A stretch of DNA of 35,031 nt from a virus. Its lineage: Duplodnaviria > Heunggongvirae > Uroviricota > Caudoviricetes. A program made the translations under genes and the position numbers. The stretch is from the IMG/VR virus record IMGVR_UViG_638341082_000010; one strand, 5' to 3'. The notes beneath the pieces were generated by a model. The model was not told the origin of the DNA and ran no database searches. It saw nothing but the letters and a program-made list of their open reading frames with translations. Positions 17,506 to 35,031 of the stretch are shown piece after piece; positions within the stretch are counted from its first letter, which is position 1; every line of letters begins with the position of its first letter.

Positions 17506-18009
17506 GTGAACCCCATGAGTATGGTTGCCAGAACCAACCCCGGACCCGCAGAGGACGACATCACCGATACCGATGATGGTGATACCCGTATTTCAGCAGG
17601 TGCATTCTGGCCGGATATTGTGCTGCGTGAACTGCGTCTGGCGGTACGACTGCCGGGCCGTGTGACCACCTCCCGCCTGCTGCATACCGCCACCGGGGCC
17701 GTGGCACACGTTACCCGCGAGCTGGAAGCGTGGCAGCAGGAACAGCAGGCGGCTGGCCATCAGACGCTGGCCGATGTTCCGGCACCCGTAATTAACGGAG
17801 AAAGCGTCAATCTCTGGCACTGGCGCAATGCGGTTTACACCGCCACACGCGCCCTGATTCTGGAGCGTTACCGCGATGCGGACACAACGGACAAGGGCGA
17901 CCGCCGGGCGGACGCACTGGATATACAGACATCGGATTTGTGGCGCGATGTGAGCTGGGCCATCTCTGACATTCTGTGCCGCCCGCGAATCTTTGCGGAA
18001 TTGTGCTGA
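17506..18009 (+). CDS. L: Head completion/stabilisation protein (gpL)
   Basis: 167 aa with CAGGAG RBS; conserved position. Confidence 0.85.
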   Translation: MNPMSMVARTNPGPAEDDITDTDDGDTRISAGAFWPDIVLRELRLAVRLPGRVTTSRLLHTATGAVAHVTRELEAWQQEQQAAGHQTLADVPAPVINGESVNLWHWRNAVYTATRALILERYRDADTTDKGDRRADALDIQTSDLWRDVSWAISDILCRPRIFAELC

Positions 18010-18209
18010 TGAAAGTGAAGGCACTGGAAGGCGACACCGTGGATTCGCTCTGTTTCCGGTACTACGGCACGACGCAGGGCGTCACCGAAAAGGTGCTGGA
18101 TGCCAACCCCGGACTCTGTCAGCAGGTATTTCTGGACGCCGGGCAGGACGTGGAGATGCCGGAGCCGGAGAAGAAGAAACGAGAAATGATTCAGTTGTGG
18201 GGGGAGTAG
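18009..18209 (+). CDS. X: Tail protein X
   Basis: 66 aa from MKVKALEGD..., start overlaps the L stop. Confidence 0.75.
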   Translation: MKVKALEGDTVDSLCFRYYGTTQGVTEKVLDANPGLCQQVFLDAGQDVEMPEPEKKKREMIQLWGE

Positions 18210-18211
18210 CA

Positions 18212-18535
18212 GTGAGCACCATTCAAACAGGGATCACAGAGCAGGTTATTGCATGGCTCTTTGACCACCTGCCAACGGTGTATGCAGTAGGCGCGGCGGT
18301 CAGCATTTCCGCGCTGATGAGTCTTTATGACGGACGAACACTGGTTCAGACCGTAACGGGATCGCTGGCGTGCGGCGTTCTTGCCATGGCCGTGGCCGGG
18401 TCGTTGCGCTTCTTCGGTTTTCCTGAAGATGCCGTGACGTTTATCGGCGCATCAATCGGTTTCATGGGGGCAGAGAAAGCACGCGACAAGGTTATTGCGG
18501 CCTTTAATCGCAGGGTGAAGGAGAAGGACGAATGA
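18212..18535 (+). CDS. Putative holin
   Basis: 107 aa from a GTG after a GGGGAG RBS; two or three hydrophobic helices; first gene of the lysis cassette. Confidence 0.55.
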   Translation: MSTIQTGITEQVIAWLFDHLPTVYAVGAAVSISALMSLYDGRTLVQTVTGSLACGVLAMAVAGSLRFFGFPEDAVTFIGASIGFMGAEKARDKVIAAFNRRVKEKDE

Positions 18536-18924
18536 GCAACACATTTAAATTCAGCAGCCGGAGCGAAAAGAATTTGCAGGGCGTAAATCCTGATCTGGTG
18601 AAAGTGACCCGACGGGCACTGGAAATCTCGGAAGTGGATTTTGGTATCACCGAAGGGTTGCGCAGCCGTTACCGCCAGAAGCAACTTGTGGCCACGGGTA
18701 AGAGCCAGACCATGAACAGTCGCCACCTTACGGGGCATGCCGTGGATGTTGTGGCTTATATCGGCAGCCAGGTGTCATGGGAATGGCCGCTGTACGAAAA
18801 AATCGCAGCAGCATTCAGACAGGCCAGCCGGGAACTGAATATTCCGGTGGAATGGGGCGGCGACTGGAAGACCCTGAAAGACGGACCGCATTTTCAGTTA
18901 CCACACGGAGTTTATCCGGCATGA
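18532..18924 (+). CDS. Endolysin, M15-family zinc peptidase
   Basis: 130 aa; SRHLTGHAVDV metal-binding motif typical of M15 peptidases. Confidence 0.75.
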   Translation: MSNTFKFSSRSEKNLQGVNPDLVKVTRRALEISEVDFGITEGLRSRYRQKQLVATGKSQTMNSRHLTGHAVDVVAYIGSQVSWEWPLYEKIAAAFRQASRELNIPVEWGGDWKTLKDGPHFQLPHGVYPA

Positions 18925-19328
18925 AGCTCTGGCCCACGCTGGGCGTCGCTTTCCTTCTGATTGCCGCATGGGGAACATCCATGCGTCTGTCGTGGTCGCT
19001 GGGCCGGGAGAACGCCAGAAACGAAGCGCAGGCCAGCGCCCTGAAACGTACCGCCGACACCCTGAATATCATCAGCGCCGGGGTACAGGATATGCAGCAG
19101 GTGCTGGCGCAACTCCGCGTGGAAAATCAACAGCGAAATCAGGACGGAGAGGCCAGACGTGAACAGCTACGCAACGATATTGCAAAAGATGAATGCGCCC
19201 ACGCTTTGCCTGACGCTCGTTTTACTGACAGGTTGCGCAGGCACGCAGAACGCGCCACGGCCAGCGCCGTCAGTCCGGCTTATACCGCAGACGCTGACCA
19301 TACCGGTAACGCCTCCCCCCTTCCCTGA
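18921..19328 (+). CDS. lysB: i-spanin (LysB/Rz-like)
   Basis: 135 aa with an N-terminal transmembrane helix and a charged coiled-coil region. Confidence 0.6.
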   Translation: MKLWPTLGVAFLLIAAWGTSMRLSWSLGRENARNEAQASALKRTADTLNIISAGVQDMQQVLAQLRVENQQRNQDGEARREQLRNDIAKDECAHALPDARFTDRLRRHAERATASAVSPAYTADADHTGNASPLP

Positions 19329-19479
19329 CACTCCCACATGGGGAAATCTCGGTATATGGGGCGACCGCCTTCTGGATGCACTGGAAACCTGTAACGCGGA
19401 TAAACGGGCCATTGAATTACTGGAACAGCGCAGGCTGCAACGACTGAACAACGAGGATAACAACCATGCTGAAAACTGA
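19189..19479 (+). CDS. lysC: o-spanin lipoprotein (LysC/Rz1-like), overlapping lysB out of frame
   Basis: Lipobox LLTGC after a signal peptide, proline-rich body. Confidence 0.6.
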   Translation: MNAPTLCLTLVLLTGCAGTQNAPRPAPSVRLIPQTLTIPVTPPPFPDTPTWGNLGIWGDRLLDALETCNADKRAIELLEQRRLQRLNNEDNNHAEN

Positions 19480-19933
19480 TTCCCTGCGTGAAGCCATGAC
19501 CCGTTCATGCCGATGGTGTCAGGCCAACCCGGAAAAATTCACCATTTTCGTGGAGAGCGGCAACATTGAAACGACAGGAGAAACCCCATCGTTTGTTTAC
19601 CGCTATCAGATGGTGATGTTTGTCATGGATTACGCCGGGGAGCTGGATGACCTCACGCTGCCGCTGCTGGCGTGGTTATCCGAAAATCAGCCACAGTTGT
19701 TGCTCAACCCTGAGCGTAATCAGGACATCAAATTCTCCGCCGTTATCAATGACGATGACAGCGCCGACCTCCTGTTTACGCTCCCCCTGTGGGAACGCGT
19801 TCGCATCACGCGCAACAGTCAGGGCACACCGCAGGCAGAACACCTGCCGGAGCCAAAACCCCGTCTGCCCTCTTCCGAAGGCGACTGGTCGCATGTATTC
19901 CAGGATGTGACGTGGGGTGAAAGCGATGGATAA
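19466..19933 (+). CDS. R: Tail completion protein R
   Basis: 155 aa, same length as P2 gpR; conserved position. Confidence 0.8.
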   Translation: MLKTDSLREAMTRSCRWCQANPEKFTIFVESGNIETTGETPSFVYRYQMVMFVMDYAGELDDLTLPLLAWLSENQPQLLLNPERNQDIKFSAVINDDDSADLLFTLPLWERVRITRNSQGTPQAEHLPEPKPRLPSSEGDWSHVFQDVTWGESDG

Positions 19934-20561
19934 GGCATTCACCCGCGTGGATGAAACCTTTGAGGCCATCCGCGACAGCCTGAATCAGCAGGCCATCAAT
20001 AACATCGCCAGAAAGCTGGCACAGGATTTACGCCGCGCCCAGCAGGCGCGTATCCGGTCACAGAAAGCGCCGGACGGGACCGCGTGGACACCACGCAGAC
20101 GCCGCGTAACCCGGATACAGGAGCGCATTCGCTTTATCTGGAATAACGAAGCACGCACGCTGAAAAACTGGCATCACGACACGGGGAAATACGGGCGAAC
20201 CATTACCGGGTGGGATGAGGATAAAAACAATATCCGCACGTTTTACCGGGATGACATCGACCGTTTTCTGGAAATACGCACCCGGCGCATCAACCAGGAC
20301 AGCACAAAGCGCGTCCCCATGTTCGTAAAACTGCGCACCGCCCGCTACCTGAAAGCCCGTGCAGATGCTTCCGGTGTGACGGTGGGTTACAGCGGCGTGT
20401 CCGCACGTATTGCCCGCGTTCATCAGTTCGGTGAGCGCGATCAGGTTGCGCCGGGCATTTTCACCGATTACCCGGTACGTGAGCTGCTGGGTATCAGCCA
20501 GGCAGATGAGCGCCTGATTTATAACACGATGCTGGGCCGGATTGCGGAGGCTGTACGGTGA
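19926..20561 (+). CDS. S: Tail completion/virion morphogenesis protein S
   Basis: 211 aa from ATG at 19926; conserved position. Confidence 0.7.
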   Translation: MDKAFTRVDETFEAIRDSLNQQAINNIARKLAQDLRRAQQARIRSQKAPDGTAWTPRRRRVTRIQERIRFIWNNEARTLKNWHHDTGKYGRTITGWDEDKNNIRTFYRDDIDRFLEIRTRRINQDSTKRVPMFVKLRTARYLKARADASGVTVGYSGVSARIARVHQFGERDQVAPGIFTDYPVRELLGISQADERLIYNTMLGRIAEAVR

Positions 20562-21139
20562 GCGCAGAACTCATGCGACTGCTGAGCAATATCATCCGCA
20601 CCGGGATCATCTCTGAAATTGATGAGAAGTCCTGGCGCGTGCGCGTTCGCAGCGGCGAACTGGAAACAGGATGGTTGCGCTGGAACACCACGCGCGCGGG
20701 AGCCTTCAATGTGTGGCTGCCGCCATCACCAGGCGAACAGGTGGTAATTGCCTGCATTGGCGGCAACCCGGAAACCGCCATGATAATTGGCAGCCTGTGG
20801 AGTGATGCCAGTCCGGCACCCGGCAAAAGCCTGAAAGAAATCGTGGTCAGCGCGCCGGATGGCGCGGTGTTCCGCTACGACGCGGACGCAGGCGCACTGA
20901 GCGCCAGCGGCATGAAAACGGCCACTTTACAGGCATCCGTCAGCGTGAAACTGGATACGCCCGTCGTGGAATGCACAAACCTTCTGAGAACGGCGACGCT
21001 TGACGTCACAAAAGGAGGAAAGATGAGCGGCAATATCACGCACAGCGGCGGCAACTTCACCTCAAACGGCATCACAGTGCATACGCATAAACACGGTGGC
21101 GTGAAAGGCGGCAGCGATTCGACAGGAGGCCCGCAGTGA
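20558..21139 (+). CDS. V: Baseplate spike/assembly protein V
   Basis: 193 aa; GTGA-coupled start. Confidence 0.85.
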   Translation: MSAELMRLLSNIIRTGIISEIDEKSWRVRVRSGELETGWLRWNTTRAGAFNVWLPPSPGEQVVIACIGGNPETAMIIGSLWSDASPAPGKSLKEIVVSAPDGAVFRYDADAGALSASGMKTATLQASVSVKLDTPVVECTNLLRTATLDVTKGGKMSGNITHSGGNFTSNGITVHTHKHGGVKGGSDSTGGPQ

Positions 21140-21486
21140 CAACCCGCTACACAGGAATGAATCCGGACGGGACGGGAAACCTGAACGATATGGAGCACCT
21201 GAAACAGTCAGTCAGGGATATCCTGACCACCCCGCTGGCAAGCCGGGTTATGCGACGGGAATATGGCAGCCTTGTGCCTGATTTGATTGACGAACCCATG
21301 AATAACACCACGCGTCTGCAATGCATGAGTGCTGCCGTGATTGCGCTGACACGATGGGAACCCCGCATTGCCCTGGATGCCATCGACGTTGTCTGGAAAG
21401 CGGGAGGCCGCGCCGGGGTGACGCTGTCGGGCACTGTCATGCAGACCATGCAGAATGTTGAATTAACCATCACGCTAAGGGAGTAA
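21136..21486 (+). CDS. W: Baseplate wedge protein W (gp25-like)
   Basis: 116 aa; MTTRYTGMN...RVMRREYGS closely resembles P2 gpW. Confidence 0.85.
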   Translation: MTTRYTGMNPDGTGNLNDMEHLKQSVRDILTTPLASRVMRREYGSLVPDLIDEPMNNTTRLQCMSAAVIALTRWEPRIALDAIDVVWKAGGRAGVTLSGTVMQTMQNVELTITLRE

Positions 21487-21489
21487 ATC

Positions 21490-22386
21490 ATGCCCGCCGT
21501 TGACCTTTCACAGTTACCGGACCCCGCCATCATCGCGGAGCCTGACTTTGAGGCAATTCTGGCTGACACAAAGGCCATGATGATTGCGGCTTATCCCGCC
21601 GAACAGCGTGAAGCCGTTTCCGCCGCGCTGGAGCTGGAATCGGAACCCCTTAACGTTATCGCTCAAACCATGTCGTTTCGTGAAATGCTGTTACGCCAGC
21701 GGGTTAACGAGGGGGCACGCGCCTGCATGTTAAGCCACAGCGCCGGGACAGACCTGGACAACCTCGCGGGCAATATGAACACAAAGCGCCTGACCATCAC
21801 TCCGGCAACGGATACCACCGACGCAGTGATGGAAAGTGACACCTCGCTGAGACTGCGGGCGCAGCGGGCGTACGATGGCCTGAGTGTTGCTGGCCCGTCA
21901 GGTGCATACGAGTATTTTGCCCGCAGCGCCAGCGGTCTGGTGCGTGATGCGCGGGCTATCAGTCCGTCTCCGGCAAATGTGACGGTTTCCATCCTGTCCA
22001 CTGAAGGCGACGGCACAGCAACGGAGGCGTTGCTTAATACCGTTCGCGCCGTTCTGAATGCAGAGGATACCCGCCCGGTGGCCGACCGCCTTACTGTACA
22101 GAGCGCCAGAATCGTGACATGGCGGCTGAATGCAAAACTGTACTTTTACCCCGGCCCGGAATCCGAACCTATTCTGGCGGCGGCTGAATCGTCGTTCAGG
22201 AAGTGGCTGGCTGAGCAGGGGCTTATCGGTCAGGACGTGGCGTTGTCCGCCATTGCTGCCGCACTGCATGTGCACGGTGTGCAACGCGTGGAGATAATCG
22301 AACCCACACAGAATATGGCCATCAGCGACATACAGGCGGCGCGCTGTGAGTCGTTCACCATCAGCGAAGGTGGGCGTAATGAGTAA
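21490..22386 (+). CDS. J: Baseplate assembly protein J
   Basis: 298 aa; conserved position and length. Confidence 0.85.
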   Translation: MPAVDLSQLPDPAIIAEPDFEAILADTKAMMIAAYPAEQREAVSAALELESEPLNVIAQTMSFREMLLRQRVNEGARACMLSHSAGTDLDNLAGNMNTKRLTITPATDTTDAVMESDTSLRLRAQRAYDGLSVAGPSGAYEYFARSASGLVRDARAISPSPANVTVSILSTEGDGTATEALLNTVRAVLNAEDTRPVADRLTVQSARIVTWRLNAKLYFYPGPESEPILAAAESSFRKWLAEQGLIGQDVALSAIAAALHVHGVQRVEIIEPTQNMAISDIQAARCESFTISEGGRNE

Positions 22387-22909
22387 TTCGTTGTTACCCC
22401 CATCAGCCAGCAATTTCATGCGTTGTGCCGAAGCCGTCGGAACACGCATTACAGACATCCCGGTAGACCTCAACACACTGTGGTCCCCGGACACCTGCCC
22501 GGTGCACCTGCTGCCTTATCTCGCCTGGGCATTTTCCGTTGACCGCTGGGATCGCAACTGGCCGGAAGAGACAAAGCGACAGGTTATTCGTGATGCATGG
22601 CTGATACACCGACACAAAGGGACCATCAGCGCACTGCGCCGGGCCATTGAGCCGCTGGGATACCTCATTCGCGTGTCTGAGTGGTGGGAATTCGGCGGAG
22701 AATCGGGAACATTTACCGTTGAAGTCGGCACGCTGGACAGTGGCGTGACGGAGGAAATGTATCTGGAAATGGAGCGGTTGATTGCTGATGCCCGCCCGGT
22801 CAGCCGCCACATGACAGGGCTGAATATCATTCAGGAAATTCCGGGGGATATTTTCGCAGCGGCGGCAACTTATGACGGTGAAGTTATCACCATTTATCCA
22901 GGCGATTAA
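22379..22909 (+). CDS. I: Baseplate/tail protein I
   Basis: 176 aa from the internal ATG overlapping the J stop. Confidence 0.8.
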
Positions 22910-22911
22910 GC

Positions 22912-25044
22912 ATGAGTACCACAACACGAAAATTTAAAACCGTTATCACCGATACGGGTGCAAAAAAATTAGCTCAGGCAGCCGCGCCAGATGGTAAGCC
23001 TGTCCGCCTGACTCATATGGCCGTGGGCGACGGTGGCGGCACGTTGCCCACACCAGACAGTAAGCAGACCCGTCTGGTGCATGAGGTGTGGCGACATACT
23101 GTTAATCGCGTCATCCTGGACGCAACACATCAGAATCGCATTATTGCGGAGCTGGTTATTCCTCCAGAAACGGGCGGATTCTGGATCCGGGAAATTGGTG
23201 TGTTTGATGAGCACGGCGATTTAGTCGCGGTGGGCAATACTGCCGAAAGTTACAAGCCAGCCGTTGCCGAAGGGTCCGGTCGTACACAAACATTTCGCAC
23301 CATTCTGACCGTATCCAGCACTGCCACTGTGGCGCTTACCGTGGATAACACCATGGTGATGGCCACAGTGGATTACGTGGATAACAAACTGAAAGAGCAT
23401 GAACAGTCACGACGTCACCCGGATGCCTCGCTGACCGCAAAAGGCTTTGTTCAACTCAGTAGCGCCACTAACAGCGTGTCTGAAACACAAGCTGCAACGC
23501 CGAAAGCAGTAAAGGCCGCGTATGACCTTGCTAACGGGAAATATACTGCGCAGGATGCCAGCACAACGCGAAAAGGCCTTGTTCAGCTCAGTAGCGCCAC
23601 CAACAGCGATTCTGAAACGCTGGCGGCAACACCAAAGGCGGTAAAGGCAGCATATGACCTTGCTAACGGGAAATATACCGCACAGGACGCTACCACAGCG
23701 CGAAAAGGTCTTATCCAGCTCAGCAGTGCGACTAACAGCACTTCCGAGTCACTGGCGGCAACGCCAAAAGCCGTTAAGGCCGCGTATGAGCTGGCTAACG
23801 GGAAATACACCGCACAGGATGCAACGACAGCACAGAAAGGGATAGTTCAGCTTAGCAACGCGACCAACAGCACATCTGAAACGCTGGCGGCAACGCCAAA
23901 GGCGGTAAAGGCAGCATATGACCTTGCTAACGGGAAATATACCGCACAGGACGCTACCACAGCGCGAAAAGGTCTTGTCCAGCTCAGTAGTGCAACCAAC
24001 AGCACGTCTGAAACGCTTGCCGCGACCCCGAAAGCGGTTAAAGCTGCTAATGACAATGCAAACGGGCGTGTGCCCTCTGGACGTAAGGTTAATGGCAAAC
24101 CACTGACCAATGATGTCAATGTTACATCACAGGATATTTTTAACGGTCAGAGTATTAATATTGGTGCAAACCAGAATCTGGATAATTACAAAACGCCGGG
24201 GCTGTACCATCAACCCCTGAATGCCTATACAAGTGCAGCGCTGAAATACCCAGAGAATCTTGCCGGTACACTGGTTGTGCTTAAAAATGCCGGGATAACA
24301 CAGATTTACTATGTGTATAACACATCCAGAAGCTATACCCGCAGCCAGTACTCAACGGGTGACTGGACAGCATGGACGCCGCAGGATTCATTTCCTGTAG
24401 GTGCGGCGATTCCGTGGCCTTCTGATTCAGTGCCTACAGGCTATGCCGTTATGCAGGGGCAGACTTTTGATAAAACAACCTATCCCCTGCTTGCAGCAGC
24501 TTATCCCTCTGGTGTACTCCCCGATATGCGTGGCTGGACAATCAAGGGCAAACCCGCCAGTGGTCGGGACGTATTGTCTCTGGAACAGGATGGCATTAAA
24601 TCGCACACCCACAGCGCCAGCGCATCCAATACGGATTTGGGTACGAAAACCACATCTTCGTTTGATTACGGTACTAAATCAACGAATAACACAGGTGCAC
24701 ATACCCACAATGTATCTGGTACTGCAAATAGTGCTGGCGCACATACTCATACCGTGCCATTAAGGAGACCAAACAGTGGCGGTATGAATTTCGACTGGCT
24801 GGATGGTGCATCAAGTGGCACGGTGGTAGGGAATGGAACTGTGCCTTCTTCTGGCGCACATACCCACTCAGTATCAGGTACCGCTACAAGTGCTGGGGCA
24901 CATGCACACACTGTTGGTATTGGCGCTCATACGCACTCTGTTGCGATTGGTTCACATGGACATACCATCACCGTTAACGCTGCTGGTAACGCGGAAAACA
25001 CCGTTAAAAACATCGCATTTAATTATATTGTGAGGCTTGCATAA
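22912..25044 (+). CDS. H: Tail fibre protein H
   Basis: 710 aa; conserved P2-H-like N-terminus, about six tandem 42-aa repeats, His-rich C-terminal domain ending NYIVRLA. Confidence 0.85.
23434..24065 (+). repeat. About six tandem 126-bp coding repeats inside H
   Basis: Repeated peptide unit [43 protein letters not shown]; also produces spurious antisense ORFs. Confidence 0.8.
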
Positions 25045-25661
25045 TGGCATTCAGAATGAGTGAACAATCACGTACTGTAAAAATTTATAACCTGCTGGCC
25101 GGAACTAATGAGTTTATTGGTGAAGGTGACGCATATATTCCACCTCATACAGGGCTGCCAGCTAATTCTACAGATATCGCCCCACCGGAAATTCCTGCTG
25201 GCTTTGTGGTAGTTTTTAACAGTGAAAATGAATCGTGGAATATTGTTGAAGACCATCGTGGTAAAACGGTCTATGACGTGGCATCGGGGGACGCGTTGTT
25301 TATTTCTGAACCCGGACCGCTACCAGAGAATGTCACCTGGTTGTCGCCAGCAGGGGAATATCAGAAGTGGGACGGCGTATCCTGGGTGAAGGATGAGGAA
25401 GCAGAAAAACTGTTTCGGATACGGGAAGCGGAAGAGAAAAAGGCAAGGTTGATCCAGGAGGCAACAGATAACATCGCAATCCTGCAGGATGCAGTTAATC
25501 TTGAAATAGCAACAAACGAGGAAAATTCACAACTGGATTCCTGGAGAAAATACAGAGTATTAGTGAGTAGAATTGACACCAGTACAGCTCCGGATATCGT
25601 ATGGCCAGAGCTGATGAATCAGGGTTATGTGCGGGAGGACGAGCAGATAACTTCAGACTGA
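25044..25661 (+). CDS. G: Tail fibre assembly chaperone (gpG/Tfa-like)
   Basis: 205 aa directly after H. Confidence 0.75.
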
Positions 25662-26188
25662 AATTTAGTGATGAATGTTGAATCATCAGGAATATCATGC
25701 AATACCAATGCATGAGCACCTATTGTGACATTGTTTCCTATACGCACTTTGCCACCAAGAATGGTGGCATTACAACCAATGGTCACATTATGTCCTATAA
25801 CAATATCCATATCATTAAAATCACCACGTAGCCCAATAGTTACCCCCGGTTTTATTGAACAATTTTCACCGATTGTTACTTTGTGACCGATAACAACACT
25901 GTTGAGATAAGAAATATCAAAGCCTTTCCCTATATTTACAGTTAAAGGGACTGTTATATTATATTTATCAAGAATGAAACGTTCTATTTTCCCCGCAATC
26001 TTCCGACAGTATCCGCCTTTATCAAAAAGGTATTTGGCTATGCGCCACCAAAATAAATAACGAAGTCTTCTATGTTTTATTGCGCGAACAATTGCCTTTC
26101 GCCAGGAGAAAGGACGCTCGCTACCGATTACTTCATAGTGAATACAGTCTTTAAGTTCATTAATATTCATATCTCTATTATTCAGCAT
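25625..26188 (-). CDS. Hexapeptide-repeat (left-handed beta-helix) acetyltransferase; low-GC moron
   Basis: 187 aa; imperfect hexapeptide repeats ([45 protein letters not shown]); visibly AT-rich versus flanks. Confidence 0.75.
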
Positions 26189-26358
26189 AAGATAATCATG
26201 TGACCAATTATTGTAATAATTTTAATGGTATGTTTCTACTGGCTATCCAGCGTGTCTGATACCCAGTAACAAATCGTTAACACAGGTGCAATCAAATGGT
26301 GAGTGTTAAGACTGGCCACTTATTACCAGGTATGAGGGTATGAGTGGCCAGCATTAAA

Positions 26359-26853
26359 TCAGAACAGCCCTTTAACTGAACTGGCCGCGCTGTTAAGGGA
26401 TGATGTCACTTTATCTTTGAAGCCGGACAGCATATCGCTGAACGATGAGGATTGCAGGCGCTCCCGCAAATCCTCATCACAGCGTTCAAGGGTCAGTGAA
26501 AATTCTATCTTTTTCGCCTTACCGTAGCGATCAAACTCGGAACGGGTCGTATTCGTTTCGGTCAGGACATACATGCCGTAAATCTGCCCGACGCCATCAA
26601 TAAGAGGCCAGGGGCGTCCTGTATACGCCTGCGTGGTCAGCAGCGACAGCGACACTTCGCCACCTGTAATTTCAGGATAAAGCACACCAGAAAGAACGAT
26701 GCGATCATCACCTGCACCGATATACTGCCAGCTTGCTGAACGGTTAACGCGTTCATTTTTCACATGCCGCCAGCTTTTGTTTTGCTGTAACTGCTGATGC
26801 GGCAGCGTGCGCAGCTCAAAAACAAACATGCCGTAGATCATCATCATGGCCAT
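26359..26853 (-). CDS. U: Tail protein U
   Basis: 164 aa downstream of the tape measure gene. Confidence 0.8.
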   Translation of the reverse strand: MAMMMIYGMFVFELRTLPHQQLQQNKSWRHVKNERVNRSASWQYIGAGDDRIVLSGVLYPEITGGEVSLSLLTTQAYTGRPWPLIDGVGQIYGMYVLTETNTTRSEFDRYGKAKKIEFSLTLERCDEDLRERLQSSSFSDMLSGFKDKVTSSLNSAASSVKGLF

Positions 26854-26859
26854 GACTCC

Positions 26860-29703
26860 TCAATCTTTATCGTAAAAACTGCCACGCCCGGCATGGGCAC
26901 GCCGTTCCATTTCTGCCCTGACCATTTCACCGACCAGTTTCGCCAGTTCGCGGGGATTCTGCGTAACAACGTTATGCAGATGAACATGAATTTCACCACC
27001 AAATCCGGAGGCAACAGGCTCCCGGTTACGGGAAGTTGCAGGAACTGATGCCACTGGCGATCGTATGGCCTCCGCCACCGGGTGAGAGCTGGCCGCAACA
27101 ACAGGGACCAGCGCCGGAGGCAGCGGAGCCGGAACCACGGGGGTGATATTAATTGCGGGGGCAGGCTTACTGACCTGTGTAATCTTCCGCTCCTGCCACT
27201 CCCCACGAACAGCAAGTGCGCGGGGCAGGTTCTTAAAGACAATATCGCCGGGGCCAATGCGTTTTTTCGTCTCATCAACCAGCTTACCTGTGTTATCAGC
27301 AATTTTGCTGAGTCTGCGTAGCGTCCCGGTATTGCTGTCTGTGAGCGGTTTGTTGTCTTTGGGTTTATCACCTCCGGTGCCATTGCCATTTTCCACAGGC
27401 TTCGGCGGATTGATTTTCGCCAGGTCCCCCTGAAGTAAGGCTACCTTGTCCTGAAGAATGGCCGCACGCTGTGCGTCTTCGATTTTCTTGCGCGCCCTTT
27501 CCGCTTCATCCGGAAGGACGCCAAGTTTTTCAAGTATCCACGCCAGCGTATCCAGTAGCATTTTTGCAGGTGTCAGAACAAGTTGTAACGCACCGCCAAG
27601 AACGTTACCGAATATCTCGCCAGCACTGGTACATTTATCCAGCGTTTCCTTGCTGGACTCCATCGGTGACAGTAGCGATTTAAACCAGTTAAACACCTGG
27701 CTGATCCCGCTTCCGATTGCGTCAAAAACAGGACCAAACCGTTCAAAAGTTTCGCGCAACGGGGTCAGCCTTTCCATAATCCCGCTGAACACCCCGGCAA
27801 AAAATGCCCTGATGGGATCCCAGTATTTCCAGATAAGAACGGCAGCTCCGGCAAGCGCAGCCACGATAAGACCAACCGGACTGAACAGCGCCCCGATAGC
27901 ACCTCCCAGCAAAGAAACGGAACCCGTCACCATTCCCCATAGTGCTGGCAGGAGCCTGACAGCATTCATTGATCCGGTCAGGAGGGAAAAACCAAGACGC
28001 AGTTTTGCCAGCGGGCCAGCAAGCACACCAAGAGCAAGCGACAACGAGCCTACGGTTGCAGTCACTGCCAGCAGCGCACCGCCTGCAATCAGTAGCTGGC
28101 GCGTCAGTACAGGATGGGCCTGCGCCAGTACCGTCACCTTTGAGACCACCCGTGTTAGCCACTGCGTGACAGAACGCAGCGGACCGTCAACCAGATCACT
28201 GATGCGAATACGAAGACCTTCCCATGCGCTGTCGAGATTTTTCAGGTCGCCATCAAGGTTGTCGGCCATAACCTTTGCCGTGCGTTCAGCCTCACCGCGT
28301 GCGCCCTCAAGTTCTTTTCTCAGTTTGGGTAAGGAACCGTCACCCGCCGCATCAACGAGTGCCATAAACGATGTGAAAGCCTCTTCCCCGGCGATGTCCT
28401 TAAAGAAGGATACCCGGTCAACTTCCCCGTATTTGCGGGTAGCTTTATAAAGGTCAGCCAGCAGATCTTCCATCGGGCGCATTTTGCCCCCGGCATCCGA
28501 AACGGACACGCCCAGCTCTTTCAGAGCTTCTGCCGCCGCCTTTGGCGGTGATGCCAGACGAGCCAGGCTGGCACGCATTGCCGTCCCGGCATCACTCCCT
28601 CTGATGCCCATATTCGCCAGCACGCCCGCCATCGCTGCGGTCTGCTCCAGCGATATTCCCAGCTTACCCGCCACCGGACCTGCATATTTCATGGTTTCGC
28701 CCAGTGCGCGAAGGTCAGTGTTGGTACGGGTAAACGCTGCGGTGAGTGTGTCACCGACCCGGTCCATCTGGTCAGCAGAAAGGCCGAACTGCGTCAGGAT
28801 ATTTGAGCCAATATCTGCCGTCTCGCCGAGATCCATACCGCCAGCCGTTGCCATGCTCAGCACGCCGGGAAGCGCAGCCTGAATGGCCTGCGGAGTGAAG
28901 CCAGCCATTGCAAGAAATGCCTGTCCACTGGCGGCATCGCCTGCGGTGAACTGCGTTTCAGAGCCAAGTTTTAACGCCTGCTCACGCAGCGCCTTAAACT
29001 GCGGGCTGTTCTGGTCGATTCGCGTCAGTGCCTGAACGCGGGACATCTCTTTGCCGAACCCGATCGCAGGCTGCAAAAAACGCCCGGCAGCATAGCCGCC
29101 CGCCGCTGCCGCACCAATTGCCAGTGCACCACCTGTTTTCAGTTTTCCCGCTGTTTCCTGCGCGCGCGAATACCGCTCACGCGCCCGCGTTACACGCGCA
29201 AGCGCCTGCCGTTCGCGTTCAAGCTGATTGTTGTACTGTTCGGTGCGTCTGATGGCCTGCTGGATGGTGTTATCGCTGCCTGTCAGGGAAATGCCGTGGC
29301 GTTTCAGCTCTCCGCCAAGCTCCCGCATTTTCTGAATTTCCCGCGTGCGCGATTCATTCAGGCGTTCAAGCCGGGTGCTTAACTGCTGCATCAGCTTTTG
29401 TTGTTTTTCGCTGAGCACTGTACCCGTGCGTTGTAACTGATTAAGGGCGTTAAGCTGGCGTCGTGCTTTCACGATACCCGCATCCGCTTTACTGACAGCG
29501 TCGCGGGCGCGCTCAAATGAACGCGCCTGACGCTCGAGATTTTTGATCGCCCCCTGCGTTCGCTGGATGGAGTCACCAAACTGCCCCATCAGGCGGCGGG
29601 CGTTTTCGGCAGGCCGGGTCAGCCTGTCAACGGCGCTGAAAGCGACCCGGATATCAAGAGTCTTCATTGTCTGCATTCCCGCTGCGAAGTGCCGCCCGCT
29701 CAC
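26860..29703 (-). CDS. T: Tail tape measure protein T
   Basis: 947 aa, coiled-coil N-terminus and Gly/Ala-rich hydrophobic segments. Confidence 0.85.
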   Translation of the reverse strand: MSGRHFAAGMQTMKTLDIRVAFSAVDRLTRPAENARRLMGQFGDSIQRTQGAIKNLERQARSFERARDAVSKADAGIVKARRQLNALNQLQRTGTVLSEKQQKLMQQLSTRLERLNESRTREIQKMRELGGELKRHGISLTGSDNTIQQAIRRTEQYNNQLERERQALARVTRARERYSRAQETAGKLKTGGALAIGAAAAGGYAAGRFLQPAIGFGKEMSRVQALTRIDQNSPQFKALREQALKLGSETQFTAGDAASGQAFLAMAGFTPQAIQAALPGVLSMATAGGMDLGETADIGSNILTQFGLSADQMDRVGDTLTAAFTRTNTDLRALGETMKYAGPVAGKLGISLEQTAAMAGVLANMGIRGSDAGTAMRASLARLASPPKAAAEALKELGVSVSDAGGKMRPMEDLLADLYKATRKYGEVDRVSFFKDIAGEEAFTSFMALVDAAGDGSLPKLRKELEGARGEAERTAKVMADNLDGDLKNLDSAWEGLRIRISDLVDGPLRSVTQWLTRVVSKVTVLAQAHPVLTRQLLIAGGALLAVTATVGSLSLALGVLAGPLAKLRLGFSLLTGSMNAVRLLPALWGMVTGSVSLLGGAIGALFSPVGLIVAALAGAAVLIWKYWDPIRAFFAGVFSGIMERLTPLRETFERFGPVFDAIGSGISQVFNWFKSLLSPMESSKETLDKCTSAGEIFGNVLGGALQLVLTPAKMLLDTLAWILEKLGVLPDEAERARKKIEDAQRAAILQDKVALLQGDLAKINPPKPVENGNGTGGDKPKDNKPLTDSNTGTLRRLSKIADNTGKLVDETKKRIGPGDIVFKNLPRALAVRGEWQERKITQVSKPAPAINITPVVPAPLPPALVPVVAASSHPVAEAIRSPVASVPATSRNREPVASGFGGEIHVHLHNVVTQNPRELAKLVGEMVRAEMERRAHAGRGSFYDKD

Positions 29704-30183
29704 GCCAGCTAACCACTTCGCCGGGCGTCATCATGAAGATTTCGGCGGGCGACCAGTTAAAAATAACGGCAATATCTGCCACAAAGTCTTCTATGTGCTC
29801 AAAGCACACAACCGTGATCAGGCTTCCGTCGCCTGTTCGTTCTTCCCGCCAGAGTCCGCACCGCTCAAAAAATTTACGGCAACCACACATAACTGAATAA
29901 AGTCACGGGATGCCATTTTTTTGATCGTCACTTCATCCAGTCGCGGTGATGTCACTCGTGACAGCAGCGTAAACATGGATTCCGCTTTCAGATTCAGCAC
30001 ATCAGACAGCGACAAATCTCGCAGAGATCCAGCCTGCTCAATAGCCCCGGTGATCTCCACATACGTGATTTTTTCGCCGCCTCGCTCAATTGGTTGGGTA
30101 AGTTTTACGCCACGCTCACTGGTTTCTTTCACAGTGTCAGCAACTACCGTGTTTTCGGTATCGATGTTTTTCGTCTCTTTCAT
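29654..30183 (-). CDS. E+E' fusion made by -1 programmed frameshift
   Basis: Overlapping -1 frame stays open from 29902 to 29654 and overlaps the T start; T TTT TTG heptamer at 29866..29872. Confidence 0.65.
29818..30183 (-). CDS. E: Tail assembly chaperone E
   Basis: 121 aa between tube and tape measure genes; contains the slippery site. Confidence 0.75.
   Translation of the reverse strand: MKETKNIDTENTVVADTVKETSERGVKLTQPIERGGEKITYVEITGAIEQAGSLRDLSLSDVLNLKAESMFTLLSRVTSPRLDEVTIKKMASRDFIQLCVVAVNFLSGADSGGKNEQATEA
29866..29872 (-). other. -1 frameshift slippery heptamer T TTT TTG
   Basis: Read from sequence in the E frame (AAT TTT TTG); same heptamer as the classical P2 E/E' site. Confidence 0.7.
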
Positions 30184-30237
30184 CAGGAAACTCCTTTCAG
30201 TCAGAGGCGACGCACTGCGCCGCCTGCATATTACTTA

Positions 30238-30750
30238 TCAGCCAAGCCCAAGCGCGGAACGGATGCGATCGGGCACAATGTCCTTGCCGTCCTTCCGGTA
30301 AATGAAGTTCAGCAGGTCAATCTCCCACAACGGACGATCGTTAACACTCAGCTTGTAGTAGGTGTTTTTAATGGCGTAAGTGTGTGATGTGGCTTCGCCC
30401 TGTTTGGCTTCCCCCATATCAATTTCCGTCACGCGTCCGCGCATTTCGACTTCATACAGGTCGCTTTCTGCATCGGTGTAGTATTCACCCGCAAAACGCA
30501 GTAGCGTGCCGTCAATCGTGCCGCCATACTTAAGGAACAGCTCACGAACTGCGCCCCCCATGACAAAGCTCGCATCAAGCGCGGAGTCGTCCAGACCGAG
30601 ATCAATACTTACCGCACCCATCATGCCACCACCCCGGTAGCTGTCGGTTTTGCGCGTCAGTTTAGGCAGGGTGACGGACGTCACCTTACCCACTTCGTTT
30701 TCACCATCCACAAACAGCGTAAAAAAGCGAAGATGTTTTGGTACAGCCAT
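30238..30750 (-). CDS. FII: Tail tube protein FII
   Basis: 170 aa, directly downstream of the sheath gene. Confidence 0.85.
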   Translation of the reverse strand: MAVPKHLRFFTLFVDGENEVGKVTSVTLPKLTRKTDSYRGGGMMGAVSIDLGLDDSALDASFVMGGAVRELFLKYGGTIDGTLLRFAGEYYTDAESDLYEVEMRGRVTEIDMGEAKQGEATSHTYAIKNTYYKLSVNDRPLWEIDLLNFIYRKDGKDIVPDRIRSALGLG

Positions 30751-31934
30751 CAGGCACCTCCCAGCACCGCAAATGCGGGACCAAAGAATTCATCAGTAAA
30801 CGACTGGTAAAGCTCCATGTCTTCCAGCGGAGGAACGGGCGTATATTTGTAGCGAATACGCACACGCCCCTGACGTAAATCCGTGGTGCTGTTATCCACC
30901 ACGTCATACCAGCACGACGCCCCAATCAGTTTCCCGGCAGTAACCAGTGAATCCAGTTTTGCCCTGATGGCACTGATAACATCCTTCACGTTCGCAGGCG
31001 TCAGTGGACTATCGATGGTTTCAAACTGCGCTTCCGCAATTGAATCAGCCAGCACCTGTGCGGTTCGGGTATACACCTCAAAGATGTAGGCGTTCGTTTC
31101 CGGTGTGCGGTTGCCCCAGAAGCGGAACCCGTTGCGACGAATAATGGTCGTGATTTCTTTGTTGTTGAGGCTGTTGGCATCACTGTCTTCGGCCTGCAAC
31201 GACCAGAACACATGCCTGGACATCCCCAGCACATTTTTAACCGGAACGTTGGACAGCGATTTGTGCCAACCCTGCTCATGGTCAATGTACGCACGAAGGC
31301 CGCACGCATAGGCAGGCGCGGGGAACGTTTCGTTTTTGCCACTTTTCGGGTTGTAGGCGATGAAGTCCGGCCATAAGAGCATCACCTCACGTTCGTTGAA
31401 TTTCTGGCGGTAGGTAATCGCCTCAGCCATCGTGTTACAGCCGTGACATGAGGCATACACAAACGCGCGCAGTTTACCCGCAATCACGCACAGGGATTTT
31501 GTTACCGCCTCCGTGTCCAGCTCCGGCGCGGCCAGAATACGCGGACGGTATCCGATGCTTTCATCCTGCTCTGCAACAAGCAGCGCATACATCCCCGTAT
31601 AGCTGCCGTCAGATTCAGAACCACCGATAACCAGTTGATCCTGCGTTTTTCCGTCTTCTTCTTTGTGTTCAGCCACGCGAACGACGATCACCTTTGTACT
31701 CACCTGGTCTGCGATGGCCTTAAGCGCACGATAAAGCGTCCCCGTTGTCCCGCATTTTCCCAGCACGTCATTGACGCGGGTCAGCAGTGTGGGCTTGTTC
31801 AGCGGGAACAGCTTCGCGTCCGCATCATCCGCCGTTGCCACGATACCGATAACGCTGGAATCAACATCGTTAATCGCTGTTACCAGGTCGGTATTTTCCG
31901 TAACACGGGCACCATGAAAACGAGTTTCACTCAT
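30750..31934 (-). CDS. FI: Tail sheath protein FI
   Basis: 394 aa; motifs RILAAPELDT, KLRAF, IRRNGFRFWGNRT, YTPVPPLE typical of contractile sheath proteins. Confidence 0.9.
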   Translation of the reverse strand: MSETRFHGARVTENTDLVTAINDVDSSVIGIVATADDADAKLFPLNKPTLLTRVNDVLGKCGTTGTLYRALKAIADQVSTKVIVVRVAEHKEEDGKTQDQLVIGGSESDGSYTGMYALLVAEQDESIGYRPRILAAPELDTEAVTKSLCVIAGKLRAFVYASCHGCNTMAEAITYRQKFNEREVMLLWPDFIAYNPKSGKNETFPAPAYACGLRAYIDHEQGWHKSLSNVPVKNVLGMSRHVFWSLQAEDSDANSLNNKEITTIIRRNGFRFWGNRTPETNAYIFEVYTRTAQVLADSIAEAQFETIDSPLTPANVKDVISAIRAKLDSLVTAGKLIGASCWYDVVDNSTTDLRQGRVRIRYKYTPVPPLEDMELYQSFTDEFFGPAFAVLGGA

Positions 31935-32091
31935 AGCTTCAGCCCCTTGTATCCGTTAAATGATTCGGCAACAATCATCACCCACCACGCGCGTAATCTC
32001 ACCCCTGCGCCGTTCTCTCGCCACGGCGACAACAAAAAGCAGTAACCCCCTCCGCACGCACATGCGACCATGCCGCACAGGGAGGGAGCAG

Positions 32092-33198
32092 ATGACCGAC
32101 ACCACCATGCAATTGCTCAGTCAGGGCACAGACCCCGTAAAAATGCCGGATTTTGATATTCTCGCGGAGGGTAAAACGCTGTCAGGCGTGGCAGAGCGCC
32201 TGATGAGCCTGTCACTGACCGACAACCGGGGATTTGAGGCGGACCAGCTCACCATCACGCTGGATGATGCGGATGGTCAGTTGCAGCTACCGCCACGGGG
32301 CGCGCGCCTGACGGTTCTCATTGGCTGGAAGGGAGAACCGCTGACAGAAAAAGGCACTTACATTGTTGATGAAATCGCTCACGAAGGACCGCCGGACAGG
32401 CTGACTGTTTCAGCCAGAAGCGCAGATTTTCGGGATGAATTTAACGTTAAACGTGAGGTGTCCTGGCATGATGTGACCGTTGAGCGTGTGGTATCCGCCA
32501 TCGCTCATCGGTATGGTCTGAAACCGCAAATCAGCGAAATGCTGATGGATATCGAAATCGACCACGCCGACCAGACCGAAGAAAGCGACATGTCCTTCCT
32601 TACGCGCATGGCGGAAATGCTGGGTGCAATCACCACGGTAAAAAGCGGCAATCTGTTATTCATCATGCCAGGTGGTGGCGTGAACGCACAGGGCCAGCCG
32701 TTGCCCTCGTTCGCCATTACACGCAGCAGCGGCGATCGCCATCAGTTCCGCATTGCTGACCGCGAGGCGTATACGGGGGTACGCGCCTACTGGCTTGATC
32801 TTAATTACGGGAAAAAGAAAAAAGTCAGCGTGAAACGCCGTAAACCGCCAAAACCCAAAAAGGAGAAAAGCAGCCGTGAAGGTGATTATATGGAAGGCGC
32901 GGAAGGCAATGTGTTTGTGTTACGCAAGACTTATCAGAACGAGCAGGCAGCAAGACGCGCAGCGGCGGCAAAGTGGCAGCAACTACAACGCGGAGCCGCA
33001 TCATTCTCCATCACGCTGGCGCGTGGACGTGCAGAACTCTACCCCGAAATGCATGGCACGGTAACAGGATTTAAAAGCGAGATTGATAATCAGGACTGGA
33101 TTATTGCAAAAGCCGGGCACACCATTGATAACAGCGGCTTTACCACGCAGCTTGAGCTTGAGGCAAAAATCCCGGAATGGATAGCGGAAACAGAGTGA
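32092..33198 (+). CDS. D: Tail protein D (late control gene D family)
   Basis: 368 aa from ATG with GGGAGGGAG RBS; conserved position upstream of ogr. Confidence 0.85.
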   Translation: MTDTTMQLLSQGTDPVKMPDFDILAEGKTLSGVAERLMSLSLTDNRGFEADQLTITLDDADGQLQLPPRGARLTVLIGWKGEPLTEKGTYIVDEIAHEGPPDRLTVSARSADFRDEFNVKREVSWHDVTVERVVSAIAHRYGLKPQISEMLMDIEIDHADQTEESDMSFLTRMAEMLGAITTVKSGNLLFIMPGGGVNAQGQPLPSFAITRSSGDRHQFRIADREAYTGVRAYWLDLNYGKKKKVSVKRRKPPKPKKEKSSREGDYMEGAEGNVFVLRKTYQNEQAARRAAAAKWQQLQRGAASFSITLARGRAELYPEMHGTVTGFKSEIDNQDWIIAKAGHTIDNSGFTTQLELEAKIPEWIAETE

Positions 33199-33240
33199 GC
33201 AACTTAGAATAGCGGCAGCACCACGTTAAGGGAGGTCGCT

Positions 33241-33501
33241 ATGTTCCGTTGTCCGCTTTGTGGCGCATCTGCCCGTATCCGCACCAGTCGTCCGGAAAAT
33301 GATTCAAACACCGTGCGGCAAAAGTATTACCAGTGTAACAATCTGGAATGCGGCGTATGCTTCTCAACACTGGAAGCTTTCCATAAATTCACATCGAAAC
33401 ACGCCTCCGGCGTTCACTCATCAGAAGGTATCCCGTGGCATGAGCTGCCAGCTTCACACAGGGGAAACAATCAGATGAGTTTGCCTTTACCTCAGAATTA
33501 A
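33241..33501 (+). CDS. ogr: Ogr/Delta-family zinc-finger late transcription activator
   Basis: 86 aa; MFRCPLCG...YYQCNNLECG cysteine pattern resembles P2 Ogr. Confidence 0.85.
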   Translation: MFRCPLCGASARIRTSRPENDSNTVRQKYYQCNNLECGVCFSTLEAFHKFTSKHASGVHSSEGIPWHELPASHRGNNQMSLPLPQN

Positions 33502-33589
33502 CAGGCAGAATTGCCGGAGTAACAAAAAAGCGATAGATTACGTGCGGGTGCCTTTCGGCTGATGGTCGGAGGGAATACCCGAAGGCCAG

Positions 33590-33826
33590 ATGTGGAAAGG
33601 CCCCGGAAAACATTTCTGTTTAACCGAGGCCCTAACACTTCTTACCTTCGCAAGTAGAAGATTAGCGCCTCTCCTCTCAGGAGACAAGCGTTATGACGCA
33701 AATTCCGTTAAAAACCCTGTTACTTTGCATAACTGCGGTAGCGATAATCTGGATCCTCCACACATCACCGTGCGAGTTACGATTCAGGTTTGCTGGCACG
33801 GAAATTGCGGCATTCTTACTATGTAA
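33590..33826 (+). CDS. mok-like overlapping reading frame of a type I toxin locus
   Basis: 78-aa ORF that contains the hok-like ORF in another frame, as in hok/mok loci. Confidence 0.4.
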   Translation: MWKGPGKHFCLTEALTLLTFASRRLAPLLSGDKRYDANSVKNPVTLHNCGSDNLDPPHITVRVTIQVCWHGNCGILTM

Positions 33827-33833
33827 TAAGTAA
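33693..33833 (+). CDS. hok: Hok/Gef-family membrane toxin, 46 aa
   Basis: MTQIPLKTLLLCITAVAIIWILHTSPCELRFRFAGTEIAAFLLCNK: transmembrane helix then CE.R...G.E.AAF motif characteristic of Hok/Gef; AGGAG RBS. Confidence 0.65.
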   Translation: MTQIPLKTLLLCITAVAIIWILHTSPCELRFRFAGTEIAAFLLCNK

Positions 33834-33919
33834 GATAACCGCGACGGGGGAGTAATCCCCCGTCAATCGGTTGCTAAGGTTGGTCGAAACGGCACCCTAT
33901 CTCACAGACATGAACAACA

Positions 33920-33953
33920 AACCCGCAGCGTAAAAACTGCGGGTTTTCTTTTT
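33920..33953 (+). terminator. Intrinsic terminator (AACCCGCAG-N8-CTGCGGGTT then TTCTTTTT)
   Basis: 9-bp stem plus U-tract about 90 nt after the hok stop. Confidence 0.65.
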
Positions 33954-34000
33954 GCTGCCCTCACAAATGAGGGCACCATACATAAGCAATAGGCATAACA

Positions 34001-34082: not shown

Positions 34083-34280
34083 ATGACGCAAAATGTACGA
34101 TGCAAAAATTGCAACAAACTACTTGCCCGCGCCTCATTTCACTACATTGAAATAAAATGTCCGCGCTGCAAAACACTTAACCAGATAACGAGAGCCATCG
34201 AGCACCCCACACACATGAGGAGTTATGACCGTGGGGATCGCAATCCAGCACCAACCAGCACATACACCGGAACACACTAA
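34083..34280 (+). CDS. com: Mu Com-like zinc-finger protein
   Basis: 65 aa from ATG with AGAGG RBS; RCKNCNKLL...HYIEIKCPRCK closely resembles Mu Com. Confidence 0.75.
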   Translation: MTQNVRCKNCNKLLARASFHYIEIKCPRCKTLNQITRAIEHPTHMRSYDRGDRNPAPTSTYTGTH

Positions 34281-35031
34281 GGTTTATCAGACTGACAATG
34301 CCACGCTCTGTCGTGGGAATGCGCTGGAAATATTGCCGCTGATTGAGCCAGAAAGTATTGATGCCTTAATCACTGACCCGCCTTACAGTTCAGGCGCGAC
34401 ACACAAGGCCGGACGCACCAACCAGGGCAGCCATGCAAAATATCTGAACGGCGAGAACCTTCACCGCTTTGATGGGTTCGCGGGTGAAAACATGGACGCC
34501 CGTTCGTGGGCTTACTGGACACAATTATGGATGGCACAGGCACACCGCGCAGTCAGGCCGGGCGGTTATGCCCTGGTATTTACTGACTGGCGACAACTAC
34601 CAGCTTTAACCGATGCGTTTCAGGCCAGTGGCTTTACATGGCGCGGCATCATTGCGTGGAACAAGGGGAGGGGGTCACGAACACCACATACCGGGTATTT
34701 CCGGCATCAGTGCGAATACATCGTCTGGGGCAGCAAAGGCCATTTAGATAAATCGCCTTCGGGACCGTTCGACGGCTGCATGACGTTCCCGGTTATCCCG
34801 TCAAAGAAAATGCACCCGACCGGAAAACCAGAAGAACTAATGGCGGAACTGGTCAGGACTGTGAATAGTGGCGGAACAGTCCTTGATCCTTTTATGGGGT
34901 CAGGGACAACGGGTGTGGCTGCACTGAAAGCAGGGCGAAAATTTATTGGTATAGAAACCAGCGATCATTATTTTGAGGTAGCAGCGCAGCGGCTTCGGGG
35001 GACTATTACCACAACCATTTCGGCTACATAA
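34225..35031 (+). CDS. DNA methyltransferase, beta-class amino-MTase (N6-adenine or N4-cytosine)
   Basis: 268 aa; DPPY catalytic motif near the N-terminus and FMGSGTT AdoMet motif near the C-terminus; start overlaps the com 3' end. Confidence 0.85.
   Translation: MTVGIAIQHQPAHTPEHTKVYQTDNATLCRGNALEILPLIEPESIDALITDPPYSSGATHKAGRTNQGSHAKYLNGENLHRFDGFAGENMDARSWAYWTQLWMAQAHRAVRPGGYALVFTDWRQLPALTDAFQASGFTWRGIIAWNKGRGSRTPHTGYFRHQCEYIVWGSKGHLDKSPSGPFDGCMTFPVIPSKKMHPTGKPEELMAELVRTVNSGGTVLDPFMGSGTTGVAALKAGRKFIGIETSDHYFEVAAQRLRGTITTTISAT

Follow-up and report, generated by a model that had tools for sequence, protein, structure and literature searches.

Must the tail genes of a P2-like element keep the order and direction that they have in P2? 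The question is raised by a viral DNA of 35,031 nucleotides (IMG/VR record IMGVR_UViG_638341082_000010; the whole of this analyzed stretch is called the window below), in which the block running from the sheath gene FI to gene U is read toward G on one strand, while D and ogr are on the other. A preliminary description regarded this as either a lineage-specific arrangement or an inversion that rewired late transcription. The locus thus poses two problems, namely how the block came to be reversed, and how the two transcription units that now diverge from the FI/D spacer might be controlled. The explanation that we favor, and to which we give a probability of approximately 0.85, is that the window is a P88-like element carrying one ancestral, fixed inversion, with a shared Ogr-type site serving the promoters pF and pD.

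Gene content and orientation of the tail region

In its open reading frames the window has the layout of a P2-like temperate phage: int and C are on the minus strand at the left end of the window, the early region is read rightward and includes a 940-aa A protein, Q and P are on the minus strand, and O through G are on the plus strand (approximately 14655-25661). The region of interest follows (identities are at the amino acid level):

26359-26853, minus strand: gpU homologue, last gene of the inverted block (Pfam Phage_P2_GpU, E = 5.5e-39; 46% identity to P2 U, 99% to P88)
26860-29703, minus strand: gpT tape measure (Pfam PhageMin_Tail, E = 1.9e-58; 32% identity to P2 T, 97% to P88)
to 29654, minus strand: E' extension in the -1 frame of E, read from the sequence; overlaps the start of T
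29818-30183, minus strand: gpE (32% identity to P2 gpE)
30238-30750, minus strand: gpFII tail tube (Pfam Phage_tube, E = 7.5e-47; 44% identity to P2 FII)
30750-31934, minus strand: gpFI tail sheath, first gene of the inverted operon (Pfam sheath domains; 45% identity to P2 FI)
32092-33198, plus strand: gpD, outside the block and divergent from FI (Pfam Phage_GPD; 49% identity to P2 D, 96% to P88)
33241-33501, plus strand: ogr-like late activator, 86 aa (Pfam Ogr_Delta, PF04606, E = 5e-14; 36% identity to P2 Ogr)

The tail set is that of a P2-like (Peduoviridae) phage, with FI, FII, T, U and D all above the Pfam gathering score and matching P2 by tblastn at 32-49% identity, and D is followed, as in P2-like phages, by a gene for an Ogr/Delta-type zinc-finger activator (PF04606). 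The E product had no Pfam or NCBIfam match; however, a AAATTTTTTG slippery run lies inside E at approximately 29877-29868 and is followed by an open -1 frame reaching the start of T. An E/E' pair with a T-run just before T is a further P2-like trait, suggesting that E' may be made by a -1 frameshift at this run, and the same pair of reading frames is annotated in P88 and Fels-2. The longest frame for gpT opens with a GTG at 29703, and the ATG at 29667 matches the start given in the P88 annotation. For D, a longer frame beginning at 31960 was rejected as the start, as it is not conserved among relatives. The ATG at 32092 is both conserved across relatives and annotated in P88, so that 31935-32091 is indeed the FI/D spacer, as had been proposed.

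The preliminary description assigned FI, FII, E/E', T and U to the minus strand and D and ogr to the plus strand, and the ORF map and the Pfam matches bear this out. Its statement that FI through D form one co-oriented operon in P2 agrees with the annotated record (NC_001895), where FI, FII, E, E+E', T, U and D are on the V-G strand in one F operon transcribed from pF. The reference layouts were compared with that of the window, and they differ: P2, 186 and Fels-2 all have FI through D co-oriented. Fels-2 had itself been a candidate for sharing the inverted layout and was discarded, its annotation being of the P2 type. The canonical P2/186 synteny of the F operon is therefore not that of the window, where FI-U occupies the minus strand, opposite to D and V-G. 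Consistent with this, tblastn matched Q and P of the window to the minus strand of P2, and O-G and D to its plus strand, while U, T, E, FII and FI, all minus-strand genes in the window, also matched the P2 plus strand.

Whole-genome comparison, which had been suggested as a check, gave the same picture at the nucleotide level. Against P2, the sole piece of FI that aligned was inverted and a piece in I/H was direct; against P88, blastn aligned 78.4% of the window at 95.8% identity, colinearly and with no inverted segment. The product of aligned fraction and identity, 0.75 (a rough measure and not a VIRIDIC value), lies above the usual ICTV genus line of approximately 70% whole-genome nucleotide similarity, and the second trait used to recognize Xuanwuvirus, an inverted FI-U block with divergent D, is also present. 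As a temperate phage or prophage, the window belongs with the P88-like elements (Xuanwuvirus, Peduoviridae). Over 9.4 kb surrounding the block, P88 and other Xuanwuvirus records align to it as a single colinear segment at 94-96% identity. As P88 can be induced and lyses E. coli strains (PMC5285337, PMC6456863), the inverted layout is a functional one.

On its left side, homology to P88 begins at 26354, at the U stop codon. The interval between G and U, a convergent junction in the P88-like clade, holds different cargo elsewhere (an invertible fiber cassette and invertase in P88, extra fiber genes in 3LV2017); in the window it carries a minus-strand gene of low GC content (42%) for a 187-aa protein, identified by Pfam and NCBIfam as a hexapeptide acetyltransferase, and no invertase was found in the window. 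One further feature lies at this boundary:

26306-26357, minus strand: stem-loop just past the U stop codon (inverted repeat I8; RNA fold -22.9 kcal/mol, z -2.3, without a U-tract)

This structure is a possible terminator of the FI-U transcript; a terminator scan returned no canonical terminator after U or G. The stem-loop is located just outside the DNA held in common with P88.

A conserved dyad between FI and D

If FI and D diverge, then each needs a promoter within the spacer, and the preliminary description had accordingly placed divergent FI and D promoters there. The features that bear on this proposal are as follows:

31935-32091, no strand: divergent FI/D control region of 157 bp (conserved blocks in a 17-sequence clade alignment)
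31974-31979, minus strand: predicted pF -10 hexamer GATGAT (aligns with the conserved GATTAT/GAATAT of relatives)
32014-32031, no strand: Ogr-type dyad TCTCTCGCCACGGCGACA (TCT-N12-ACA), continuing as ACAACAAAAA, centered at 32022.5 (clade alignment)
32066-32071, plus strand: predicted pD -10 hexamer GACCAT, preceded by a GC block at 32054-32065 (relatives have CGCGCGCRTG and an AATCAT-like hexamer)
14565-14582, no strand: further copy of the dyad in the divergent P/O spacer, TCT-N12-ACA with ACAAAAG after it; counterpart of the P2 pO/pP site

The spacer is 153-157 bp long in P88, 3LV2017 and SEN5. When it was aligned across 17 diverse members of the clade, the conserved blocks comprised the ribosome sites of FI and D (the latter with its ATG), a hexamer resembling GATTAT on the FI strand, a T(G/C)T-N12-ACA dyad followed by ACAA(AAA), the block CGCGCGCRTG, and an AATCAT-like hexamer; outside these blocks the sequence varied freely.

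The consensus of the four Ogr-dependent late promoters of P2 is TGT-N12-ACA (PMC3931495). Exact matches to this consensus number eight in the window, no excess over chance, and none is in a late spacer; the left half-site at FI/D is TCT rather than the canonical TGT, relatives having either TGT-N12-ACA or TCT-N12-AGA, and the site was recognized through the alignment of relatives' spacers, which revealed the TCT variant. An extended motif, TYT-N12-ACAACAAAA, has only two zero-mismatch matches in the 35 kb, one in the FI/D spacer and the other in the P/O spacer (14565-14588), and P88, 3LV2017 and SEN5 each likewise have one dyad in each of the two spacers. Among 40 loci of the inverted type (described below), T[GC]T-N12-ACA was found 78.5-88.5 nt upstream of the FI ATG in 37, and the other three, all from Providencia, have TCT-N12-AGA at the equivalent place. 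These patterns suggest that the dyad at 32014-32031 is probably an activator site shared by pF and pD.

The candidate core promoters fit such a site. GATGAT is approximately 46 bp from the dyad center, as in P2-type late promoters, and transcription from pF would begin just downstream of it, near 31967 on the minus strand; by the same reasoning, pD would start just downstream of GACCAT, near 32078 on the plus strand. Both hexamers are weak (three to four of six matches), and a generic sigma-70 scan detected no promoter-like site in the FI/D spacer, which is expected for activator-dependent promoters but does not speak in their favor. As a pattern, then, the proposed pair of divergent promoters agrees with a conserved dyad flanked on both sides by -10-like hexamers. 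A mapped precedent exists at the other divergent late region: in the P2 record pO and pP share one activator site (3057-3087), with their mapped starts (pP at 3016, pO at 3127) each 55.5 bp from the site center, and the starts predicted here for pF and pD would be approximately 110 bp apart, compared with 111 bp for P2 pP/pO. Similarly, PP' and PO' of Smp131 were assigned to the same 18 bp (PMC3931495).

The strongest alternative accepts the inversion as real and holds that the dyad serves pF only, with D or ogr under a constitutive promoter or one regulated in some other way. Sites of the Ogr type are usually described as belonging to a single promoter, the -10 hexamer of pD (GACCAT) is weak, and the conserved CGCGCGCRTG block could bind another factor. 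We nevertheless consider this unlikely, as the spacer has a single conserved dyad, located approximately 55 bp from -10-like hexamers on both sides, and as P2 and Smp131 each provide the example of one site for two promoters. The P side of the P/O spacer, moreover, has the same GC block and -10 layout as the D side of the FI/D spacer. Late control of D is also to be expected, D being an essential late tail gene of P2.

Distribution and history of the inverted block

A 1.7-kb probe spanning the FI/D junction found that junction intact in 29 phage records, including 3LV2017, SEN5 and KSP20, and in 1116 of 5426 complete E. coli genomes, or approximately one in five. We also collected 80 loci from GTDB species representatives by FI alignment (the best FI matches, as opposed to randomly drawn loci) and used tblastn to locate J, I, U, T, FII, FI, D and ogr in every locus. 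Two groups of 40 resulted. Wherever FI was at least 55% identical to that of the window (40 of 40 loci), D was divergent upstream of FI; in these loci J and I, where detected, converge on U, with the exception of one rearranged locus (L015). All except one of the 40 are in genomes of Enterobacterales, the hosts including Escherichia/Salmonella, Citrobacter, Enterobacter, Kosakonia, Klebsiella, Raoultella, Serratia, Brenneria, Pectobacterium, Erwinia, Pantoea, Mixta, Providencia, Morganella and Xenorhabdus, among others. Conversely, all 40 loci with an FI nearer to that of P2 have the P2 gene order, and these include loci from outside the Enterobacterales (Paraburkholderia, Collimonas, Solimicrobium, Pseudomonas, Acinetobacter and Celerinatantimonas). 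The reversed layout is thus fixed throughout a clade to which Xuanwuvirus, Reginaelenavirus, Senquatrovirus and many prophages of Enterobacterales belong.

In quick neighbor-joining trees (midpoint rooted, without support values), the inverted type was monophyletic for FI (39 of 39 sequences), U (37 of 37) and D (39 of 39), and in the D tree it was nested among P2-type sequences. The J tree was incongruent with these three, indicating recombination nearby, which is expected close to the recombining fiber genes. Our best reading of these comparisons is that one old inversion of orthologous genes became fixed in a large, Enterobacterales-infecting branch of the Peduoviridae; that it was a single event, and that the P2 order is the ancestral one, would follow by parsimony. 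The two options offered by the preliminary description would then both apply, since the arrangement is lineage-specific, as the state of a whole clade, and is best explained by an inversion, one that called for a new D promoter.

A different history, in which FI-U was imported ready-made and in the opposite orientation from another contractile-tail element, appears improbable. P2-like phages are mosaic around their tail fiber and baseplate genes, and here, too, the J tree is incongruent and both H/G and the cargo between G and U vary between close relatives. Divergence from P2, however, is equal inside the block (FI 45, FII 44, U 46, T 32 and E 32% identity) and beyond its ends (D 49, Q 47, P 44, N 42 and V 45%), which argues for inversion in place over a module swap. 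Furthermore, FI and U, within the block, yield the same monophyletic group as D, beyond it. The control region also resembles that of P2 pF: the dyad lies 88.5 bp from the FI ATG in the window and 83 bp from it in P2, and the half-site farther from FI (GTTGT) is the better one in each, as expected if pF and its site had travelled with the block.

Still less credible is the idea that the block is a programmed invertible segment, a switch of the Gin/Cin/Hin type of which the window happens to show one of two states. Invertases do occur in the vicinity: P88 has a DNA invertase gene adjoining U together with its invertible tail fiber cassette, and Fels-2 has an invertase between its fiber genes and FI. 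The window, by contrast, has no invertase between G and U, and the search for inverted repeats at the block boundaries that had earlier been called for, once run, disclosed no crossover sites or other repeats pairing the two ends, the best pairs being short, imperfect and elsewhere in the window. The opposite orientation was seen in none of the 40 clade loci and in no phage record checked, and it would break the conserved divergent promoter architecture. Finally, an artefact of assembly or scaffolding, for which we found no supporting point, is refuted by the identical junction in independent phage genomes and in 1116 complete E. coli genomes.

We found no published description of this inversion, in a search that took in few of the subscription journals and is therefore weak evidence of absence. 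The arrangement itself is already known in the sense that annotated public records have shown it from KSP20 and P88 onward, and as the layout is both common and old, little about it remains surprising.

Proposed origin and late-control wiring

Our preferred explanation, a single ancestral inversion with a shared activator site, can be set out as a series of steps. In the ancestor of a large P2-like branch infecting Enterobacterales, a segment comprising the pF activator site, pF itself and FI, FII, E/E', T and U would have inverted once, with one breakpoint after the V-G operon but before the pF activator site and the other at the U/D boundary. The FI-U operon would thereafter have been read toward G, leaving D and ogr without an upstream operon. 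As the old pF site is a dyad, it would now stand back to back with D; and as D would adjoin the more distant half of this symmetric site, it would have needed only a core promoter, gained approximately 55 bp away on the far side. In the present-day element, a single Ogr-type site would probably drive pF leftward (FI to U) and pD rightward (D and probably ogr).

This proposal bears on the remainder of the late region. No pV-like site was found in the 130 bp preceding R or V, nor does a comparable intergenic gap come before either gene, and for this reason O through G may be one long operon. We lean, by a narrow preference, toward a late program with two bidirectional Ogr-dependent nodes (P/O and FI/D), no separate pV, and tighter positive feedback on ogr. 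If this is so, the closer placement of ogr, approximately 1.2 kb downstream of an Ogr-activated pD and not at the end of an operon of 6.4 kb, would account for the tighter feedback. No description of such two-node wiring in P88-like phages was encountered in the literature searched.

The distribution also carries a caution, which is that P2 synteny is not universal within the Peduoviridae: the block from sheath to U is reversed in a very common group of prophages of E. coli, Salmonella, Klebsiella and their relatives. In P88-like elements, D and the late promoters will be misassigned by annotation pipelines and by operon or promoter predictions that take P2 as their model; the P88 record is an example, as it lacks an annotated ogr and shows a spurious ORF within the FI/D spacer. 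More generally, a dyad-symmetric site can serve the gene left behind, so that an operon may be inverted without loss of late control.

Comparison with known systems

The closest known relative is P88 (NC_026014 / KP063541), which has the same gene order and strands (U, T, E/E', FII and FI minus; D and ogr plus), 96% nucleotide identity over 26354-33958, and block proteins with 95-100% amino acid identity. Its FI/D spacer, also 157 bp, differs from that of the window at only two bases, one of them within the N12 of the dyad. The two elements differ between G and U, where P88 has its invertible cassette and invertase and the window the acetyltransferase gene, and they diverge in distal H, in G, in parts of the early region, and in the immunity and integrase region. 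More distant relatives, 3LV2017 (Klebsiella; Reginaelenavirus), SEN5 (Salmonella; Senquatrovirus) and KSP20 (Serratia), share the inverted FI-U block, the divergent D, and one TGT-N12-ACA dyad in each of the FI/D and P/O spacers; nevertheless, their FI proteins are only 55-69% identical to that of the window, and their genera, hosts and fiber-to-U cargo are different.

The P2 F operon has the same seven tail genes, at 32-49% amino acid identity, with the E/E' T-run frameshift, an Ogr-family activator gene after D, and a TGT-N12-ACA-like dyad approximately 83-88 bp upstream of the FI ATG; even the G-U site of the window has a counterpart, the P2 cargo site that separates G from FI (Z/fun). In P2, however, D is the last of seven genes co-oriented with V-G, whereas in the window FI-U is inverted, D is separate and divergent, and V has neither a pV-type site of its own nor a gap upstream.

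The nearest parallel to the proposed control region is the P2 pP/pO region, where divergent late operons, approximately 155-175 bp apart, likewise have one dyad in mid-spacer; the -10-like hexamers of the window lie at matching distances on either side, preserving the geometry of approximately 55 bp. The half-site in the window is TCT and not TGT, and its starts are predicted while those of P2 are mapped. A shared Ogr site at FI/D would thus be a small addition, of a kind already known from pP/pO: P2 has this architecture at P/O only, and the window has it at FI/D as well.

Annotation of the window and of P88

Escherichia phage P88 (NC_026014), the colinear relative of the window, carries an ogr gene that is unannotated in its RefSeq record: by tblastn, P88 34476-34733 is 99% identical to the window's Ogr. 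The same record annotates a 43-aa ORF at 33155-33286, within the spacer between the divergent FI and D genes; this ORF is probably spurious. The longest O reading frame in the window begins at 14622, with an alternative ATG at 14655 that matches the start annotated for O in P88. We favour the ATG at 14655 because pO, the predicted late promoter of O, is predicted to start at approximately 14628, and because of a GAGGGG ribosome site.

Inverted-layout loci from other hosts

Among the loci collected with the FI alignment, L007 (NZ_JBQPOM010000071.1, 'Vagococcus sp. WN89Y') is a 226-kb contig carrying a P88-like prophage whose FI is 98% identical. Vagococcus is a Firmicute, and the contig is most likely contaminating or mislabelled enterobacterial DNA. 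The inverted layout (FI, FII, E/E', T and U opposite to D and ogr) was also found in Xenorhabdus (L034, L035, L039, L041 and L043) and in Pectobacterium (L036 and L037). As both genera carry P2-derived R-type tailocins (xenorhabdicin and carotovoricin, respectively), tailocin clusters, not prophages, may account for some of the seven. For L043, neither J nor I, two P2-type late genes, was found in the 10-kb flank downstream of the FI-to-U block.

Accessory genes and RNAs

Features of the window outside the P2-type late genes
4723-4797 and 4833-4920, plus strand: isrK and C4 antisense RNA (Rfam)
8551-9510, plus strand: ParM-like segregation ATPase
25625-26188, minus strand: hexapeptide-repeat acetyltransferase, 187 aa, EpsC/CysE/WcaB-like
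33919-33946: bidirectional terminator-like hairpin, downstream of ogr
34225-35031: DNA N6/N4 methyltransferase, 268 aa

Both early-region RNA hits exceed the Rfam gathering score (isrK, 65 bits; C4, 83.5 bits) and adjoin a gene annotated in P88 as 'derepression protein'. This P2-like phage may thus carry an antirepressor module under antisense control, in the style of P1/P7. The ParM-like ATPase is 99% identical to P88 gp17, which in P88 is directly followed by a 'partition protein' gene; an actin-type partition system is unusual in a P2-like phage that integrates. The stop codon of the methyltransferase gene (35029-35031) is the exact right end of the window. The corresponding region of P88 holds a hok/mok-like gene.

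The acetyltransferase gene lies in low-GC DNA (42%) and is convergent with G, the 3' ends overlapping by 37 bp. Its product scores under every equivalog cut-off. The gene is probably lysogenic-conversion cargo, with a predicted role that is perhaps polysaccharide O-acetylation. The gene occupies the interval between G and U, which in P88 holds an invertible fibre cassette and an invertase; the acetyltransferase cassette of the window also occurs in phage vB_EcoM-613R2.
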